In this document: piece after piece, positions 1 to 8,902 of the stretch | How positions within the stretch are numbered: position 1 is the stretch's first letter | Layout: the number at the start of each line of letters is the position of its first letter | Virus genome (UHGV): UHGV-0132370 | Direction: 5' to 3' (one strand) | Source: a virus | Length of the DNA stretch: 15,932 bases | The notes under the pieces: model-generated | The model's database searches: none | What the model saw: the letters and a program-made list of their open reading frames with translations, nothing else | Told to the model about the DNA's origin: nothing | Made by a program: the position numbers and the translations under genes

Positions 1-162
1 CGCGCCATGCTCAACGAACGTTACCAGGACTATGACGCCACGGCATCCGGTGCGAAGCGAGGCGAGGAACTGGCGGAAGCAAGCGGTGATTTATGGCGTG
101 ACGCCCGCTGGGCCATCAGCCGGGTGCAGGATGCGCCGCACTGCACAGTGGAGCTTATCTGA
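1..162 (+). CDS. 3' end of upstream head gene, probably capsid completion protein (P2 gpL-like); partial, start lies outside window
   Basis: Open frame from position 1 to TGA at 160-162, overlapping the ATG of the next gene (TGATG). Position immediately upstream of X matches P2 order L-X. Assignment rests on synteny, not on recognised motifs. Confidence 0.45.
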   Translation, partial: RAMLNERYQDYDATASGAKRGEELAEASGDLWRDARWAISRVQDAPHCTVELI

Positions 163-365
163 TGAAAGTGCGTGCGCATCAGTATGACACGGTGGACGCG
201 CTTTGCTGGCGTCATTACGGGCGCACGCAGGGTGTCACGGAGCAGGTACTGAAGGCAAATCCGGGGCTTGCCGAATACGGCCCCTTTTTACCTCACGGGC
301 TGCAGGTGGAGCTGCCGGACATTCCGACAACCACCACCGTGCAGACCGTCCAGCTATGGGACTGA
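162..365 (+). CDS. X: Tail protein X (P2 gpX-like, 67 aa)
   Basis: 67-aa ORF, same length and position as P2 gpX (between L and the holin); ATG overlaps the upstream stop. Confidence 0.75.
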   Translation: MKVRAHQYDTVDALCWRHYGRTQGVTEQVLKANPGLAEYGPFLPHGLQVELPDIPTTTTVQTVQLWD

Positions 366-368
366 ATT

Positions 369-584
369 ATGACGCTTGAGCGAATCAGCGCCTTTATCAC
401 GTATTGCATCGCCGTCGTGCTAGCCTGGCTGGGCGATTTGTCCATCAAGGATGCCTCAACGCTGGGCGGCCTGATGATCGGTGTGCTGATGCTGGCTATC
501 AACTGGTACTACAAACACAAAGCCTACCAGCTTCTGCGCGACGGGCAGATCTCGCGGGAGGACTATGAATCCATCAATCGTTAA
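369..584 (+). CDS. Holin (71 aa, two predicted transmembrane segments, charged C-terminus)
   Basis: Two hydrophobic stretches (ISAFITYCIAVVLAWLG and LGGLMIGVLMLAINWYY) followed by a charged tail (KHKAYQLLRDGQISREDYE); sits immediately upstream of and overlapping the endolysin gene. Confidence 0.7.
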   Translation: MTLERISAFITYCIAVVLAWLGDLSIKDASTLGGLMIGVLMLAINWYYKHKAYQLLRDGQISREDYESINR

Positions 585-1077
585 ACGCTGCCTTGTCGGG
601 GTTGTGCTGGCTATTGCTGCCACGCTGCCGGGTTTTCAGCAGCTTCACACCTCCGTGGAGGGACTGAAACTGATCGCCGATTACGAAGGCTGTCGTCTGC
701 AGCCGTATCAGTGCAGCGCGGGCGTCTGGACCGACGGCATTGGTAATACGTCGGGCGTCATTCCCGGCAAAACCATTACGGAACGACAGGCAGCAGAAGG
801 GCTTATCTCCAACGTGCTGCGTGTGGAGCGGTCACTGGAAAGGTGTGTGAAGCAACAGCCACCGCAGAAAGTGTATGACGCGGTGGTGTCATTTGCCTTC
901 AACGTGGGGACAGGCAATGCCTGCAGCTCCACGCTGGTGAAATTGCTCAATCAGCGGCGCTGGGCGGATGCGTGCCGACAGTTGCCGCGCTGGGTTTATG
1001 TGAAAGGTGTTTTTAATCAGGGGCTGGATAACCGCCGTGCGCGGGAGATGGCCTGGTGCTTACAGGGAGCAAACTGA
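565..1077 (+). CDS. K: Endolysin, T4-lysozyme-type (GH24-like) with hydrophobic Gly/Ala-rich N-terminal segment (possible SAR endolysin)
   Basis: 170-aa ORF with lysozyme-like motifs (ADYEGCRLQPYQCSAGVWTDGIGNT, VVSFAFNVGTGN); N-terminus KRCLVGVVLAIAATLPGF is weakly hydrophobic; position after the holin as in P2 Y-K. Confidence 0.8.
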   Translation: MNPSIVKRCLVGVVLAIAATLPGFQQLHTSVEGLKLIADYEGCRLQPYQCSAGVWTDGIGNTSGVIPGKTITERQAAEGLISNVLRVERSLERCVKQQPPQKVYDAVVSFAFNVGTGNACSSTLVKLLNQRRWADACRQLPRWVYVKGVFNQGLDNRRAREMAWCLQGAN

Positions 1078-1078
1078 A

Positions 1079-1456
1079 ATGAAAAAGAAATTAATCAGCG
1101 GACTGTTTCTGATGTTATGGATGGCGCTGTTAATCGCAGCAATGGTGTATCCGCAGGGGATCTTTCCGGTACTGGCAGCGTCCGGCGTTTGGGTAGCCTG
1201 TTTGCTGACATGGGCGGTAATTCCGGTAGCACTGGCTGCGTTAATTCAGAATGGCCCGCTCTGGCAGGAGTTGAGGGCATCTTTGCTGAAGAGCATTACC
1301 CGAAAAGAAAACGTATTTATCAGCTGGGTTATGCGATTGCTGATTGTCGTAAGTCTCGCCTGGACGGGGTGGGCTATTACCCTGGTCTTTTATCTGCTGA
1401 CCGTTATTGTCTTCTGGATCACCCGTAACCAGATGGCGCAACAGGTAGCAGCATGA
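1079..1456 (+). CDS. lysA: Lysis accessory membrane protein LysA-like (about 4 predicted TM segments)
   Basis: ATG at 1079 directly after the endolysin stop (1075-1077); product MKKKLISGLFLMLWMALLIAAMVY... is strongly hydrophobic throughout; the track ORF 1007..1456 contains this internal Met as the likely true start. Confidence 0.7.
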   Translation: MKKKLISGLFLMLWMALLIAAMVYPQGIFPVLAASGVWVACLLTWAVIPVALAALIQNGPLWQELRASLLKSITRKENVFISWVMRLLIVVSLAWTGWAITLVFYLLTVIVFWITRNQMAQQVAA

Positions 1457-1881
1457 ACCGGTTGCTGCTGGTTGTGCTGGCGTTATTACTGGCGTCGCTG
1501 GGCTGGCAGACGTGGCGGCTGGCTGATGCCAGCCAGACCATCAGCACGCAGGCAGACGAGCTGCAGAGCAAAAGCCAGGCGCTGGCAAAGAGCAACAACC
1601 AGCTTATCAGCCTGTCCATTCTGACTGAAACTAACAACCGGGAGCAGGCGCGGCTCTATGCCGAAGCAGAACAGACCAGTGCACTGCTGAGACAACGACA
1701 ACGCCGGATTGAGGAACTGAAACGTGAGAACGAGGATTTACGCCGCTGGGCTGATACTCCTTTGCCTGCTGACATTATCCGGCTGCGGGAACGTCCGGCA
1801 CTCACCGGAGGTGCAGCTTACCGTCAGTGGTTGTCCGCGAGTGACGCCGTGTCAGCTGGATCAGGCAGCGCCACACAATAA
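1453..1881 (+). CDS. lysB: Inner-membrane spanin, LysB/Rz-like
   Basis: N-terminal TM segment (LLLVVLALLLASLGW) followed by a charged coiled-coil-like region (QRQRRIEELKRENEDLRRW); ATGA overlap with lysA stop. Confidence 0.8.
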   Translation: MNRLLLVVLALLLASLGWQTWRLADASQTISTQADELQSKSQALAKSNNQLISLSILTETNNREQARLYAEAEQTSALLRQRQRRIEELKRENEDLRRWADTPLPADIIRLRERPALTGGAAYRQWLSASDAVSAGSGSATQ

Positions 1882-2014
1882 CGGTGATCTGAACGCATTG
1901 CTGGATGAAACGGAGGCCGCCTGGGCGGTCTGTGCAGACAAAGTGGACATGATTATTGCGTGTCAGGAGCGAAACAGTGAACAAACCACAATCCCTGCGC
2001 CACGCCCTCAATAA
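1724..2014 (+). CDS. lysC: Outer-membrane lipoprotein spanin, LysC/Rz1-like, in +1 frame overlapping lysB 3' end and R 5' end
   Basis: GTG start at 1724 preceded by GAGGA (1711-1715); lipoprotein signal with lipobox LTLSGC; Pro-rich mature part; embedded/overlapping arrangement typical of Rz/Rz1 and P2 lysB/lysC. Confidence 0.75.
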   Translation: MRTRIYAAGLILLCLLTLSGCGNVRHSPEVQLTVSGCPRVTPCQLDQAAPHNNGDLNALLDETEAAWAVCADKVDMIIACQERNSEQTTIPAPRPQ

Positions 2015-2408
2015 AGCAGTGCCTTATGTCCGTAATAACCCGGACAAACTGCATCTGTTTGTGGATAACGGTTCGCTGGTTGCCACTGGGGCCAGCTCCA
2101 TGTCATGGGAGTACCGCTACACCCTGAACGTGGTAATTGAAGATTTCAGCGGCGACCAGAATCTGCTGATGGCCCCGGTTTTGCTGTGGCTGCGGGATAA
2201 CCAGTCTGATGCCATCAATAACCCGACGTTACGGGAAAAGCTATTCACCTTTGAGGTGGATATTCTGCGCAACGATGTCTGTGATATCAGCCTGAACCTG
2301 CAGCTGACGGAGCGTGTGCTGGTCAGCACTGACGGAAGTGTGTCGAGCGTTGAAGCGATAACGGAACCCGATGAACCTGAAGAAATGTGGACGGTGAAAC
2401 GTGGCTGA
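1977..2408 (+). CDS. R: Tail completion protein R (P2 gpR-like)
   Basis: ORF following the lysis cassette as in P2; likely GTG start at 1977 preceded by AGGAG (1964-1968); the track ORF begins at an upstream TTG (1956). Start is uncertain. Confidence 0.75.
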   Translation: MNKPQSLRHALNKAVPYVRNNPDKLHLFVDNGSLVATGASSMSWEYRYTLNVVIEDFSGDQNLLMAPVLLWLRDNQSDAINNPTLREKLFTFEVDILRNDVCDISLNLQLTERVLVSTDGSVSSVEAITEPDEPEEMWTVKRG

Positions 2409-4745: not shown

Positions 4746-5343
4746 TCTGCTGCCATCGGGGTCAACTTCACTGGAGCGCCGACTGGCGCAAACGTGCAGC
4801 GGGATTTCTGATCTGCAGGTGCCGCTGCGTGACTTGTGGAATCCGGCTACCTGCCCGGTCAGCTTCCTGCCTTATCTCGCCTGGGCGTTCTCTGTGGATC
4901 GCTGGGACGAAGGCTGGACAGAAAGCGTCAAGCGCCAGGTGGTGAAGGATGCTTTTTATATTCATCAGCATAAAGGGACCACCAGTGCCGTGCGGCGGGT
5001 GGTGGAGCCGTTCGGCTTTCTGATCCGCATTATTGAGTGGTGGCAAACCGGAGAGGCACCGGGCACGTTTCGCCTGGATATCGGCGTGCAGGACCAGGGC
5101 ATCACTGAAGATACCTATCTGGAACTTGAGCGACTGATAAGCGATGCCAAACCATGTAGCCGCCACATGATCGGCATGTCCATCAATCTGCAGACCAGCG
5201 GCCCGTATTGGGTGGGAGCCGCCAGCTATCTTGGCGAAGAAATCACGATCTATCCGTATATCAACGAAACGATTATTTCCGGTGGCACCGCGCATGAAGG
5301 CGGGGCGGTCCATGTTATTGACACAATGAGAGTGAATCCATGA
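4738..5343 (+). CDS. I: Baseplate/tail protein I
   Basis: 201-aa ORF overlapping J stop and H start; position as P2 gpI. Confidence 0.8.
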   Translation: MNSLLPSGSTSLERRLAQTCSGISDLQVPLRDLWNPATCPVSFLPYLAWAFSVDRWDEGWTESVKRQVVKDAFYIHQHKGTTSAVRRVVEPFGFLIRIIEWWQTGEAPGTFRLDIGVQDQGITEDTYLELERLISDAKPCSRHMIGMSINLQTSGPYWVGAASYLGEEITIYPYINETIISGGTAHEGGAVHVIDTMRVNP

Positions 5344-6746
5344 GCACAAAATTTTATACCCTGCTGACGGATATTGGCGCGGCGAAACTTGCCAGCGCCG
5401 CCGCGCTCGGTGTGCCGCTAAAAATTACCCATATGGCGGTGGGCGATGGCGGCGGAGTATTGCCAACGCCGGACGCAAAGCAGACGGCACTGGTAAATGA
5501 GAAACGCCGGGCTGCGCTGAATATGCTCTATATCGACCCGCAGAACAGCAGCCAGATTATTGCTGAACAGGTGATCCCTGAAAACGAGGGCGGTTGGTGG
5601 ATACGTGAAGTGGGCCTGTTTGATGAGTCCGGGGCATTGATTGCCGTGGGCAACTGCCCGGAAAGCTATAAGCCGCAACTGGCTGAAGGCAGCGGGCGTA
5701 CCCAGACCGTGCGTATGGTGTTGATTACCAGCAGCACGGACAATATCACCCTGAAAATCGACCCTGCCGTAGTGCTGGCAACCCGCAAGTATGTGGATGA
5801 TAAGGTACTGGAGCTGAAGGTGTACGCGGATGATCAGATGGCAAAACATCTTGCCGCACCGGACCCGCATTCACAGTATGCACAGAAAGAAAGTCCTACG
5901 TTTACCGGGACACCCAAAGCGCCAACGCCAGCGGCGGGGAATAACACCACGCAGGTTGCGACCACCGCGTTTGTTCAGGAGGCACTGACGGCTCTTATTA
6001 ATGGTGCGCCAGCCACGCTGGACACGCTGAAAGAAATAGCCGTAGCCATTAACAATGATCCGAAATTCAGTACCACCATTAACAATGCGCTGGCACTGAA
6101 AGCGCCGCTGTCGAGTCCGGCACTCACCGGAACGCCAACAGCCCCCACGGCGGCGCAGTCGGTCAACAATACACAGATTGCCACCACGGCTTTTGTGAAA
6201 TCGGCGATTGCGGCAATGGTGGGTTCTGCACCTGCGGCACTGGATACACTGAACGAACTGGCGGCGGCGCTGGGGAATGACCCGAACTTTGCCACGACAA
6301 TGCTTAATGCACTGGCAGGTAAACAACCGCTGGACAATACGCTGACTAATTTGAGTGGAAAGGATGTTGCTGGTCTTCTCGCATACCTTGGTTTGGGAGA
6401 AGCGGCGAAAAGGGATGTGGGCACAGGAGATAATCAGATACCGGATATGGGAGCATTCGCTTCTGGTTCGGGATGGTTCAGGCTACCAGGTGGATATATT
6501 GTTCAGTTTGGCACTTTTTCAGGAAACACGACCCGCTTTATCAGTGGACACTTCCCTATACCATTCCCTAATCAGCCGATGGTTTCAGTCAGTGTTATGT
6601 CTGATGCCGTTCAGTCAGACCCGTCGATTCCTGCCCCGCAGGTTTTGTCTGTAAATTTTGAACGTATCAGTAATTCAGCGTGGCGTGTGGCAACCAGTGA
6701 TATCTCACAGCAATACAGATTCAGTTATATTTCGATAGGACGGTAG
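5340..6746 (+). CDS. H: Tail fibre protein H (constant N-terminal part 5340..6389 plus currently expressed variable C-terminal domain 6390..6746)
   Basis: 468-aa ORF with N-terminus MSTKFYTLLTDIGAAKLA..., internal tandem ~73-aa tail-fibre repeats, and a compositionally distinct (AT-richer) 3' end that begins at the left crossover site. Confidence 0.9.
   Translation: MSTKFYTLLTDIGAAKLASAAALGVPLKITHMAVGDGGGVLPTPDAKQTALVNEKRRAALNMLYIDPQNSSQIIAEQVIPENEGGWWIREVGLFDESGALIAVGNCPESYKPQLAEGSGRTQTVRMVLITSSTDNITLKIDPAVVLATRKYVDDKVLELKVYADDQMAKHLAAPDPHSQYAQKESPTFTGTPKAPTPAAGNNTTQVATTAFVQEALTALINGAPATLDTLKEIAVAINNDPKFSTTINNALALKAPLSSPALTGTPTAPTAAQSVNNTQIATTAFVKSAIAAMVGSAPAALDTLNELAAALGNDPNFATTMLNALAGKQPLDNTLTNLSGKDVAGLLAYLGLGEAAKRDVGTGDNQIPDMGAFASGSGWFRLPGGYIVQFGTFSGNTTRFISGHFPIPFPNQPMVSVSVMSDAVQSDPSIPAPQVLSVNFERISNSAWRVATSDISQQYRFSYISIGR
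6376..6401. repeat. Left crossover-like site (26 bp, ttctcgcatacc-tt-ggtttgggagaa) inside H; 6388..6401 is a 14-bp perfect inverted repeat of 8255..8268
   Basis: 12-2-12 dyad resembling gix/hix/cix invertase crossover sites; the reverse complement of 6388..6401 (ttctcccaaaccaa) is identical to 8255..8268. Confidence 0.75.
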
Positions 6747-6748
6747 AA

Positions 6749-7189
6749 ATGCAGAAATATATTTTCAGTGCCGATAAAAATGCGTTTTTCCCTGTGGAGC
6801 TTAAAATCGCTTATCAGGAATCCGGCGAATGGCCCGATGATGGAATCGAAATTGACGACACTGTTGCTGCCGAATTTATGAAGGAAGCACCAGAAGGAAA
6901 ATACAGAGGTGTCATCGACGGAATGCCTGCATGGATTGATATTCCACCGCCAACTCATGAGGAACAAATTGCCGCAGCCGAACTGAAAAAGCAGCAATTG
7001 ATTAATCAGGTCAACGAATACATAAACAGTAAGCAATGGCCTGGTAAAGCGGCGATTGGTCGCCTGAAAGGTGAGGAACTGGTGCAATATAATTTGTGGC
7101 TGGATTATCTGGACGCACTGGAACTGGTCGATACTTCCGGTGCGCCAGATATTGAATGGCCTACGCCTCCGGCAGTTCAGGCCAGATGA
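6749..7189 (+). CDS. G: Tail fibre assembly chaperone (P2 gpG-like / Tfa), partner of the current H C-terminus
   Basis: 146-aa ORF 3 bp after H stop; C-terminal motif LVDTSGAPDIEWPTPPA shared with the convergent - strand paralogue. Confidence 0.8.
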   Translation: MQKYIFSADKNAFFPVELKIAYQESGEWPDDGIEIDDTVAAEFMKEAPEGKYRGVIDGMPAWIDIPPPTHEEQIAAAELKKQQLINQVNEYINSKQWPGKAAIGRLKGEELVQYNLWLDYLDALELVDTSGAPDIEWPTPPAVQAR

Positions 7190-7763
7190 CATCAGGCGCG
7201 GTGCTGGTATCTGTTGCCGTCACCGCGTCAATATAATCCAGCACAGCGTTAAGTCGGGTTGTTTCTGCCTGCGTCAGCTTCCGTCCGGCCTGTAATTTCA
7301 GTTGAATCAGACTGATGGAAGACATTGCTGCATCAATCAGTGACTGGCGCTGTGCTTCTGCCGCTTCTACTGCGGCGCTATGCTGTGCCTCAGTATCCGT
7401 CACCCATTTCTCACCATCCCATTTATCATATGGCGTTAACGGGGCGATAGTGGTTGTATTTTCAGGGTAATCACCCAGAGATGTGATTTCTTTCGATTCT
7501 CCTGTTTCGGTGCTATAGATGATTTCACCGCGATGGTCTGGCACATATTCCCATGAGTTAAAATCTGCAGAGCGGCAGATTGCATAACCGGCTTTATGTG
7601 TACCTGGTGCATCTAAGCATGAATACGCCGGAATACCGACACCCACAGCAAGGTATTCGGTTGATGTGGAAAGATATTCCTTCGTCTCAGCATCAAAATT
7701 ATAAACGGTAATGTTTCCTGCCTTTGTAGTAATGAGTTCGCTATTTAATACGGCTTTATTCAT
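7161..7763 (-). CDS. Alternative tail fibre assembly chaperone (tfa'), partner of the silent fibre cassette
   Basis: 200-aa ORF on - strand, convergent with G (3' ends overlap 7161..7189); C-terminus DTSTAPDVIWPELPEA parallels the G C-terminus; start ATG overlaps the stop of the upstream - strand cassette (TGATG). Confidence 0.75.
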   Translation of the reverse strand: MNKAVLNSELITTKAGNITVYNFDAETKEYLSTSTEYLAVGVGIPAYSCLDAPGTHKAGYAICRSADFNSWEYVPDHRGEIIYSTETGESKEITSLGDYPENTTTIAPLTPYDKWDGEKWVTDTEAQHSAAVEAAEAQRQSLIDAAMSSISLIQLKLQAGRKLTQAETTRLNAVLDYIDAVTATDTSTAPDVIWPELPEA

Positions 7764-8268
7764 CAGGCTGCCCTCACGATATAGTTAAATGCGACGTTGC
7801 GCGGGTAACCTTCTTGGTTTCCAAAGGTGGGGCTCTGCGTAGTCACAGAAGTAGCAGAGTTGTTGTTTGTCCCGCCGCTGCCGCCAAGTGATCGGATAAC
7901 GCCGCCGTCGCCTGCTGTCGCTGCTGGCCCTAACTCCCTACCGTTCTGCGATGGTACAGTTGTACTAGTTGGGATGCTGCCGCTAGCCGATGTCCAAATT
8001 TCCAAGCCGTGGACGTGCGATCCTGGAGACCATCCCTGGCTAGACCCTATCGAACGCCCTGGATCAACCCCTCGCCCATCATCCCATCCACGAATAAATT
8101 CACCGCGCAGGTCTGGCAGCAAAAGACCGGGGTAAGCGAGAGCAAGCTTCGGATATTGGGAGGCGATAAATGGCGCACCGTTGCATTTCAACCAGCCTGT
8201 TGGCGGAGTTGCTAAAGGCCACGGAACAGGGACACCAACAGGTAATGCAGAGCCTTCTCCCAAACCAA
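7763..8268 (-). CDS. Alternative tail-fibre C-terminal cassette (H'), 167 codons, lacks own promoter and start; in frame with H constant part after inversion
   Basis: - strand frame reads GLGEGSALPVGVPVPWPLATPPTGWLKCNGAPF... starting inside the right crossover site; the GLGE codons (ggtttgggagaa) are the same as the GLGE codons of H at the left site. Confidence 0.7.
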
Positions 8269-8280
8269 CGTTTAAGAAAA
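8255..8280. repeat. Right crossover-like site (26 bp, ttctcccaaacc-aa-cgtttaagaaaa), inverted relative to the left site
   Basis: 12-2-12 organisation; 8255..8268 is the exact reverse complement of 6388..6401; lies about 55 bp upstream of the invertase start. Confidence 0.75.
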
Positions 8281-8335
8281 TGCAGAGGTAACAGCTAACT
8301 GGCATCATCTCCGGTTTTTATTCAGGGGGATGATC

Positions 8336-8902
8336 ATGCTTATTGGCTATGTACGCGTGTCAACAAATGACCAGAACACCGATTTGCAACGTAATGCACT
8401 GAACTGCGCGGGATGTGAGCGGATTTTTGAGGACAAAATCAGTGGCACTAAGTCCGACAGACCGGGGCTGAAAAAACTACTCAGGACACTATCGGCAGGA
8501 GACACGCTGGTTGTCTGGAAGCTGGACAGGTTGGGGCGCAGTATGCGGCATCTTGTTACGCTGATAGAAGAGTTGCGCCAGCGTGGTGTGAATTTCAGAA
8601 GCCTGACTGACAGTATTGATACCAGTACCCCAATGGGCCGTTTCTTTTTTCATGTCATGGGTGCCCTAGCTGAAATGGAACGCGAACTGATAGTTGAACG
8701 TACCAGGGCGGGGCTGGCTGCAGCTCGTGATAAAGGCAGAGTAGGTGGACGCCGTCCTAAGTTGACCACCGAACAGTGGGCACAGATTGGACGCTTACTC
8801 GAGGCCGGAGAATCAAGACAGCGTATTGCACTGATTTTTGATGTGGGTGTTTCCACAATTTATAGAAAATTTCCGGCAAATAAGAGTAATGAATCCCCCT
8901 GA
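8336..8902 (+). CDS. Serine DNA invertase, Gin/Hin/Cin/Pin family
   Basis: N-terminus MLIGYVRVSTNDQNTDLQRNAL... with the catalytic serine in YVRVSTNDQ, plus VVWKLDRLGRSMRHL and SLTDSIDTSTPMGRFFFHVMGALAEMERELIVERT, and a C-terminal HTH-like tail; ATG 8336 has better spacing to GGGGGA (8325-8330) than the in-frame ATG 8330. Confidence 0.9.
   Translation: MLIGYVRVSTNDQNTDLQRNALNCAGCERIFEDKISGTKSDRPGLKKLLRTLSAGDTLVVWKLDRLGRSMRHLVTLIEELRQRGVNFRSLTDSIDTSTPMGRFFFHVMGALAEMERELIVERTRAGLAAARDKGRVGGRRPKLTTEQWAQIGRLLEAGESRQRIALIFDVGVSTIYRKFPANKSNESP

Follow-up and report, generated by a model that had tools for sequence, protein, structure and literature searches.

Does the lysis cassette of UHGV virus genome UHGV-0132370 act through a large-hole holin and a soluble endolysin, as in the Y/K pair of phage P2, or through a pinholin and a signal-anchor-release (SAR) endolysin? 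The question is raised by a prediction, made from the letters of positions 369 to 1,077 of the 15,932-nucleotide stretch of DNA analysed here (the window), that a small holin with two transmembrane domains (TMDs) stands beside an endolysin with a SAR-like N-terminus, and that the lysis trigger differs from that of canonical holin/soluble-endolysin systems. Tests at the level of sequence favour such a difference in trigger, as they point to an endolysin of the phage P1 Lyz type accompanied by a two-TMD class II holin. The cassette probably uses the pinholin/SAR-endolysin route rather than the large-hole holin and soluble endolysin of P2, the assignment of the endolysin being the firmer part of this reading and that of the holin the less certain one.

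Gene order and hydropathy of the lysis proteins

At its left end the window carries a P2-type late operon with the gene order X-hol-lys-lysA-lysB-lysC-R-S, followed by gpV and further genes. It includes a gpX-like tail protein (162..365, + strand, as are all features described here), which matches PF05489 at E 2e-34 and is 61% identical to P2 X and 93% identical to Fels-2 X. The class II holin of 71 aa (369..584), beginning MTLERISAF and ending ESINR, follows, and its ORF overlaps by 20 nt (565..584) that of the endolysin, a GH24 (T4-lysozyme-type) muramidase of 170 aa (565..1077) whose ATG lies 2 nt downstream of a Shine-Dalgarno-like GGGAGGA (556..562, identified from sequence context). Both are genuine genes and not chance ORFs, as Pfam and PHROGs families are matched in each case, the PHROGs hits being at 1.9e-26 for the holin (phrog_20) and 2.8e-67 for the endolysin. 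Downstream lie a LysA-like protein of 125 aa with four hydrophobic segments (1079..1456; NF038378 at 2e-35, phrog_162), which occupies the position of P2 lysA, the LysB i-spanin with one N-terminal TMD (1453..1881; TIGR03495 at 1e-51), and the LysC o-spanin with lipobox LSGC (1724..2014; NF038368 at 1e-35, PF23793), whose gene overlaps both lysB and R. The proteins X, LysB, LysC, R and S have homologs in P2 at 34-61% identity, whereas direct protein comparison of the holin and endolysin with P2 Y and K gave no meaningful similarity. Judged by these similarities, the holin/endolysin pair is a module swap relative to P2 in which the neighbours X, LysB, LysC, R and S have been kept, and the cassette represents the usual lysis module of Fels-2-type prophages (Peduoviridae, P2-like).

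Hydropathy was compared by a Kyte-Doolittle (KD) scan with control proteins at a threshold of KD 1.4, which is conservative, since the weak TMD1 of the phage 21 pinholin S21 fell below it in the same scan. Two hydrophobic segments were found in the holin of the window (residues 6-22 and about 29-48) and three in P2 Y (93 aa); the endolysin has one, at its N-terminus, and P2 K has none, while the LysA-like protein has four and LysB one. The holin is therefore, as had been predicted, a protein of exactly 71 aa (ORF 369..584) with two TM segments and is unlike the three-TM Y protein of P2, and the combination that would have spoken against the prediction, a three-TM holin with an endolysin whose N-terminus is not membrane-like, is not what the scan returned.

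The holin and its relatives

The holin passes the threshold of PF16080 (Phage_holin_2_3, HP1 holin; 36.7 bits, cut-off 28.8) and is named 'HP1 family phage holin' by NCBI/PGAP, while its score for PF04971 (P21 holin S) is 23.2 bits, below the cut-off of 26. By BLASTP the holin has hardly any similarity to HP1 Hol (21% identity, E 0.19), and the same comparison with S21 gave no alignment. With a profile of 27 members of the holin family, 186-like variants included, as the hhalign query and single sequences as targets, S21 was matched at a probability of 89.8% (E 1.8e-6) with both TMDs covered, and the controls HP1 Hol and P2 Y at 6.9% and 2.6%, respectively. The relationship to S21 is visible through the family profile only and not by pairwise BLASTP; the alignment with S21 that had been proposed as a check thus yields nothing pairwise and a distant match by profile.

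The first TMD (residues 6-22, ISAFITYCIAVVLAWLG, 384..434) consists of 17 uncharged residues between the flanking R5 and D23 and is short yet strongly hydrophobic (KD 2.12, 35% small residues). It aligns to TMD1 of S21 but without the six-residue SAGSAG segment, and it is not the weakly hydrophobic SAR TMD1 that characterises S21. The second TMD (residues 29-48, ASTLGGLMIGVLMLAINWYY, 453..512) contains G34xxxG38 and aligns to TMD2 of S21 as LG[GS]L..G.L....N.Y.K. The C-terminal tail, KHKAYQLLRDGQISREDYESINR, is highly charged, which together with the small size and the two TMDs makes the protein a class II holin. No dual-start motif was found in the holin, which has a single Met and for which the in-frame upstream codon is the stop codon of gpX. 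In five P2-like phages inspected for the pairing of this holin type with an endolysin (Fels-2, YenM06.16-2, EtG, RCIP0057 and MDG94-186), the adjacent endolysin had a KRC-hydrophobic N-terminus and the motif EGC...C in every case (5/5). The likeness to the pinholin/SAR-endolysin pairing of phage 21 that had been proposed is thus borne out for the two-TMD class II architecture, with a distant relationship to S21 suggested by the family profile, and it does not extend to a SAR TMD1 or a dual start.

We suggest that the holin is a pinholin, because of its distant homology to S21, its Pfam family and its constant pairing with anchored EGC...C endolysins, and this label is less certain than the SAR label of the endolysin. 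The main competing reading accepts a SAR endolysin and takes the holin for a canonical large-hole class II holin, in which case lysis would still be triggered by depolarisation. In support of it, TMD1 has the hydrophobicity of an ordinary TMD (at the KD value and small-residue content given above) and no weakly hydrophobic insertion of the S21 kind, a dual start is absent, canonical holins can serve SAR endolysins, as P1 LydA does (PMC6116005; PMC9025707), and KP12.peg.320, the cognate holin of phage KP12, was modelled as a heptamer with low confidence (PMC9902359). We nevertheless regard a large-hole holin as unlikely, given that the profile match to the S21 pinholin spans both TMDs, that the threshold of the HP1-holin family is passed and HP1 Hol is pinholin-like in experiments (PMC7312051), and that the holin type stands invariably beside anchored endolysins in the P2-like phages inspected.

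The LysA-like protein

The LysA-like protein shows marginal similarity to P2 LysA (E 0.011), and it is possible that it acts as a regulator of lysis timing. A more specific scheme, in which the Fels-2/186-type holin would derive from an S21-like ancestor as a compact form without the TMD1 insertion and the dual-start antiholin, and in which the LysA-like protein would set lysis timing as a dedicated antiholin acting on a pinholin, is speculative and in our judgement improbable. PHROG and RefSeq label this membrane protein 'endolysin'. Programmed frameshifting is unlikely to lie behind the endolysin-LysA fusion ORFs, whose junctions differ between entries.

Catalytic site and cysteines of the endolysin

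The endolysin matches PF00959 at E 4e-40, and its best sequence match in the PDB is phage P1 Lyz (1XJT, E 2.2e-26), with two more anchored endolysins of known structure, the phage 21 endolysin R21 and DLP12 RrrD, further down the list; the proposed comparison with P1 Lyz and R21 thus singles out P1 Lyz as the best solved relative (E 2e-26). The P1 Lyz and S21 reference sequences were checked and are 100% identical to the phage records. The residues E41, C43, C50 and T56 of the endolysin align residue for residue with E42, C44, C51 and T57 of P1 Lyz, in the motif E41-G-C43-x6-C50-x5-T56 (685..732), which holds the triad Glu41-8x-Cys50-5x-Thr56 at exact spacing. The Glu-8x-Asp/Cys-5x-Thr triad has been defined for GH24 SAR endolysins (PMC3556154; PMC9239132), and the triad Cys of P1 Lyz is locked in a disulfide until activation (PMC3556154). 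Each of the two proteins also has one Cys in its N-terminal hydrophobic segment, C9 (codon at 589-591, within the predicted SAR domain) in the endolysin and C13 in P1 Lyz. The endolysin therefore keeps the complete set of three cysteines that regulate P1 Lyz, C9/C43/C50 corresponding to C13/C44/C51. The protein contains both peptides quoted in the original prediction, KRCLVGVVLAIAATLPGF at residues 7-24 and YEGCRLQPYQCSAG at residues 40-53, and the cysteines it placed in the N-terminal segment and by the catalytic region are these same C9, C43 and C50. They are conserved in close homologs, with one exception, P0069, where position 43 is Gly.

The control of P1 Lyz is by disulfide isomerisation and not by caging of the Lyz103 kind. 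In P1 Lyz, Cys44 and Cys51 are reportedly bonded while the enzyme is tethered, and Cys13 is said to attack after release; in Lyz103, the caging reportedly depends on cysteines that flank the catalytic Glu (C-E-G-C), with Asp kept in the triad. The endolysin of the window has a Cys in the predicted SAR domain, a Cys at Glu+2 and the catalytic Cys at Glu+9, which is the P1 Lyz pattern. It differs from Lyz103 (DCEGC...YKD) in that E41 is preceded by Y40 and position 50 is occupied by Cys instead of Asp, and from R21, which has EGVSYIPYKD and a Cys-free anchor, in having Cys at all three positions. By these residues the endolysin is specifically of the P1 Lyz type, because R21 has Val and Asp at the corresponding positions and an anchor free of Cys, and Lyz103 has Cys on both sides of Glu and keeps Asp. 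The claim of a disulfide-caged regulation as in phage 21 and P1 accordingly needs to be narrowed: the cysteine pattern of P1 Lyz is present, the parallel with phage 21 falls, as R21 has Val, Asp and no SAR Cys, and caging is the wrong term.

The N-terminal segment of the endolysin

The N-terminus of a SAR endolysin has been described as two or three basic residues followed by a charge-free TMD (PMC9239132), and the endolysin shows this arrangement. After K7 and R8 comes an uncharged stretch of 23 residues, C9-V31 (KD 2.09-2.24), with the hydrophobic core C9-F24, and we predict that this region (583..657) is a SAR domain. The core includes two Gly, four Ala and one Thr, which amounts to 44% small residues, against 39% over the 23-residue stretch; counted by hand, the SAR domains of P1 Lyz, R21 and Lyz103 contain about 54-62% small residues and the LysB anchor about 27%. 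The N-terminus that had been described as hydrophobic and rich in Gly and Ala is thus hydrophobic as stated, and its content of small residues is lower than that of the three characterised domains. Because the anchor is more hydrophobic and poorer in Gly/Ala than these, its release, whether spontaneous or dependent on the proton-motive force, is not guaranteed, and the kinetics of release are not predictable from it.

The N-terminus is conserved as M-N-x-x-x-V-K-R-C in homologs down to about 55% identity. For an analysis of covariation, homologs were collected by an exhaustive HMMER search and reduced to representatives of 50%-identity clusters that were less than 75% identical to the query, the key positions being mapped by BLAST. 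Among the enzymes with an N-terminal hydrophobic segment, a Cys was found in the segment in 18 of 20 with EGC...C and in none of five with Asp or Pro at the triad position (Fisher's exact p about 4e-4, hand calculation). This covariation of the segment Cys with the active-site Cys pair argues that the N-terminal segment stays on the mature endolysin and takes part in thiol chemistry, and it favours a SAR domain over a cleaved signal peptide. As 26 diverged homologs without an N-terminal hydrophobic segment carry EGC...C as well, the motif was rejected as a SAR marker on its own.

An AlphaFold (AF2) model of the endolysin, built from an alignment of 59 diverse sequences, reached a pLDDT of 94.6, with residues 11-26 modelled as helices at pLDDT 96-97; with a shallow alignment, restricted to sequences of 79% identity or more to the query, the pLDDT was 44.1 and the model was discarded. 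In a Foldseek search of the PDB, the top match was 1XJT, the active, SAR-containing form of P1 Lyz (TM 0.86/0.82, rmsd 2.9 A over 173 columns), a match that is not independent evidence, as the training set of AF2 included the PDB with 1XJT. RrrD and full-length R21 ranked after it, and 1XJU, the secreted inactive form of P1 Lyz, was matched at a TM of only 0.57. The model agrees with a published AlphaFold model of KP12.peg.319, for which TM-align gave 0.83 against 1XJT (PMC9902359). The basic residues and uncharged hydrophobic stretch, the alignment with P1 Lyz, the cysteine covariation and the fold match all point in the direction of the predicted SAR-like N-terminus, and an anchored endolysin of the P1 Lyz type is well supported by sequence and model together.

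The same features bear on the possibility that the segment is a cleavable Sec signal peptide, in which case the lysozyme would be soluble in the periplasm and subject to a different control. In favour of this, the segment is fairly hydrophobic and has an AxA-like motif at A16-I17-A18, and a signal peptide was predicted by SignalP in HP1 Lys, a relative of the endolysin (PMC7312051). This motif is, however, preceded by merely about seven hydrophobic residues, the closest characterised homologs are unprocessed (PMC6116005), residues 11-26 are confident helices in a fold that is closest to full-length active P1 Lyz, and a covariation of Cys9 with the active-site Cys pair (18/20 against 0/5) would be senseless for a segment that is discarded, so that cleavage appears very improbable. 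A start of the endolysin at GTG 604, which would give a protein of roughly 157 aa without K7, R8 and C9 that is perhaps not targeted to the membrane, can practically be dismissed, for although ON470620 gives the shorter ORF, as does the Fels-2 record NC_010463 at the corresponding codon, ATG 565 is preceded by the strong GGGAGGA while GTG 604 has no Shine-Dalgarno of comparable strength, RefSeq PGAP and most records give the long form of 169-171 aa, and the 13 residues upstream of the GTG are kept at the protein level (IVKRC) in Fels-2 and in 186-like homologs at about 55% identity, a conservation in diverged homologs from which it follows that the long form is real.

Proposed lysis mechanism

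For a pinholin acting with an uncleaved SAR endolysin, we infer the following course of export, tethering, disulfide chemistry, hole formation at the size expected and the possible role of LysA. The endolysin made from ATG 565 would keep its N-terminus in the cytoplasm by means of K7-R8, with C9-F24 serving as an uncleaved type II signal anchor, and Sec would export the lysozyme domain while the tether to the inner membrane is retained. The tethered enzyme would be inactive, its catalytic Cys50 being held in a disulfide with Cys43 as in P1 Lyz. Meanwhile, the two-TMD holin would build up in the inner membrane until, at a critical level, it causes depolarisation, probably through small holes, and with the loss of the proton-motive force the anchor of the endolysin would leave the bilayer. 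The thiol of Cys9, now periplasmic, would then attack the Cys43-Cys50 disulfide and free Cys50, and the N-terminal helix would pack on the catalytic domain to give an active muramidase. A further idea, which is speculative and in our judgement improbable, is that the regulatory Cys of K-R-C, placed at the cytoplasmic edge of the anchor, would couple this disulfide isomerisation to the complete extraction of the helix. The LysB/LysC spanin would subsequently disrupt the outer membrane, with the LysA-like membrane protein possibly adjusting when lysis occurs.

Distribution and implications

The DNA of positions 162..2014 is 96-97% identical to that of Escherichia phages 500465-1 and vB_EcoM-813R9 and Klebsiella phages KP12 and 4LV2017, and the holin and endolysin are 80% and 91% identical, respectively, to the Fels-2 proteins. 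The holin-endolysin DNA is present in 1031 of 5426 complete E. coli genomes (about 19%), where PGAP gives the names 'HP1 family phage holin' and 'lysozyme'. The pairing of a pinholin with a SAR endolysin in P2-like phages is already known, annotated and published: the GenBank record of Fels-2 carries '2 transmembrane domains; putative holin' and 'similarity to Lyz of P1', the homolog in Klebsiella phage RCIP0057 is annotated 'SAR-endolysin', and KP12.peg.319, which is 98% identical to the endolysin of the window, has been described as P1-Lyz-like with a SAR domain (PMC9902359).

If the reading given here is correct, many P2-like prophages of Enterobacteriaceae would lyse by the pinholin/SAR-endolysin route and not by that of P2 Y/K. 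The analysis is also of value for annotation, since in some public records the annotated start of the endolysin lies too far downstream, which removes the basic residues and Cys9 of the anchor. In the cloning of enzybiotics, toxicity of the full-length lysozyme and an activity that depends on redox conditions would have to be expected.

Comparison with known systems

The same cassette is found in Fels-2, RE-2010, SEN8, Klebsiella phages 4LV2017 and KP12 and Escherichia phages 500465-1 and Cartapus, from which that of the window differs in nothing substantive. P2 Y and K occupy the same position in the late operon, but Y has three hydrophobic segments and K lacks a hydrophobic N-terminus, and the window pair is not the canonical P2 combination of a three-TMD class I holin with a soluble lambda-R-like endolysin. 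In phage 21, S21 resembles the holin of the window in its 71 aa, two TMDs and charged C-terminus, and differs in its dual-start antiholin and the SAGSAG of TMD1, both absent here; R21 shares the fold and the N-terminal anchor of the endolysin, but its triad contains Asp and it lacks regulatory cysteines, and its activation chemistry would therefore differ.

P1 Lyz, the first SAR endolysin to be established, shares with the endolysin the GH24 fold, the Glu-8x-Cys-5x-Thr triad, the basic residues followed by an uncharged segment that bears a Cys, and the Cys at Glu+2. The identity is just 36-37%, however, and an insertion of P1 Lyz around residues 118-130 is absent from the endolysin, whose anchor is poorer in Gly/Ala and has its Cys at the cytoplasmic edge after KR, whereas the Cys of P1 Lyz is in the middle of the helix. 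The genes are also arranged differently, as the endolysin of the window adjoins its holin in a P2-type cassette and P1 lyz is unlinked from lydA/lydB.

The parallel in genomic arrangement is provided by the Haemophilus phage HP1, likewise a P2-like myovirus, in which a small holin without a dual start is encoded by a gene that overlaps the gene of a P1-Lyz-like EGC...C endolysin and is followed by a LysB-like spanin gene. HP1 Lys is 34% identical to the endolysin of the window (E 2e-27), and HP1 Hol, of 78 aa, differs from the holin in its weakly hydrophobic TMD1 and can barely be aligned with it directly. HP1 Lys has been shown to lyse E. coli independently of a holin, and the release of HP1 is sensitive to azide (PMC7312051). 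HP1 Hol kills without lysis or leakage of beta-galactosidase and is needed for lysis in the native host (PMC7312051). The authors of that work concluded that HP1, with no dual start and no antiholin identified, lyses its host by means of a pinholin and a Sec-dependent SAR endolysin (PMC7312051).

Start codons in the lysis cassette

The endolysin gene (window 565..1077, +) begins upstream of the start codon given for its counterpart in two public records, ON470620 (1943) and Fels-2, NC_010463 (2030), in both of which an internal GTG is annotated as the start. The stretch concerned corresponds to window 565..603, and initiation at the GTG deprives the predicted membrane anchor of its basic residues and of the conserved Cys. 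In Fels-2, too, an in-frame ATG lies upstream of the annotated GTG, together with the conserved peptide MNPSIVKRC.

In 186-like phages (Eganvirus and relatives), the holins start with MGL(K/S/T)MEK (positions 1795..2016 in the four records compared, L006-L009), the two Met codons being four residues apart and overlapping the gpX stop. This two-Met start may be a dual-start holin/antiholin motif. The sequence ATGGGACTGA is kept in the window (355..364), but out of frame with the holin (369..584, +), which therefore has a single start available.

Catalytic cysteine in GH24 homologs

Among the diverged homologs of the window endolysin, in which the Cys residues were counted, a Cys at the triad position, nine residues after the catalytic Glu (E+9), is very common in GH24 endolysins without an N-terminal hydrophobic segment, either alone (33 homologs) or with the extra Cys at E+2 (26 homologs). 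Possession of the "catalytic Cys" is thus not confined to SAR enzymes. N-terminally truncated gene calls may account for some of the homologs devoid of the hydrophobic segment.

Gene fusions on both sides of the endolysin

In-frame holin-endolysin fusions of 196-197 aa occur in a few database entries (P0018, P0037, and P0094). A 9-nt direct repeat, GCTGGCTAT, is present in the second transmembrane domain of the holin (window 491..499) and in the endolysin anchor (606..614), and the fusion joint falls exactly at this repeat (GVLMLAI/AATLPGF), which fits the loss of 115 nt between the two copies.

On the other side, the lysA frame is open for 72 nt 5' of its ATG and overlaps the C-terminal codons of the endolysin (window 1007..1081). 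Many database proteins, 96-99% identical to the endolysin, are endolysin-LysA fusions of 276-296 aa (Pfam PF00959 and PF28015); one of them is present on 30 contigs, and several originate in complete NCBI genomes. The junctions result from frameshifts at several different positions within the last ~20 endolysin codons, e.g., RAREMA/CVYREQTEMKKK and RAR/RWPGAYREQTEMKKK, and this variation suggests that the frameshifts are not programmed but stem from independent indels or from errors in sequencing.

Tail-fibre region

The tail-fibre region (window 5340..8902) looks like a candidate invertible host-range switch. Tail fibre H (5340..6746, +) and a tail-fibre assembly protein (6749..7189, +) are followed by another tail-fibre assembly protein (7161..7763, -), a tail-collar-domain fragment (7763..8308, -) and, finally, a serine recombinase of the Resolvase and HTH_7 type (8330..8902).

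Annotation of the LysA-like protein

The LysA-like protein (window 1079..1456, +) contains four hydrophobic segments and lacks an enzymatic domain. The "endolysin" label that its family carries in PHROGs (phrog_162) and in the P2 RefSeq record looks like a propagated misannotation. Compared with P2 LysA itself, the window protein displays only marginal similarity (E 0.011).
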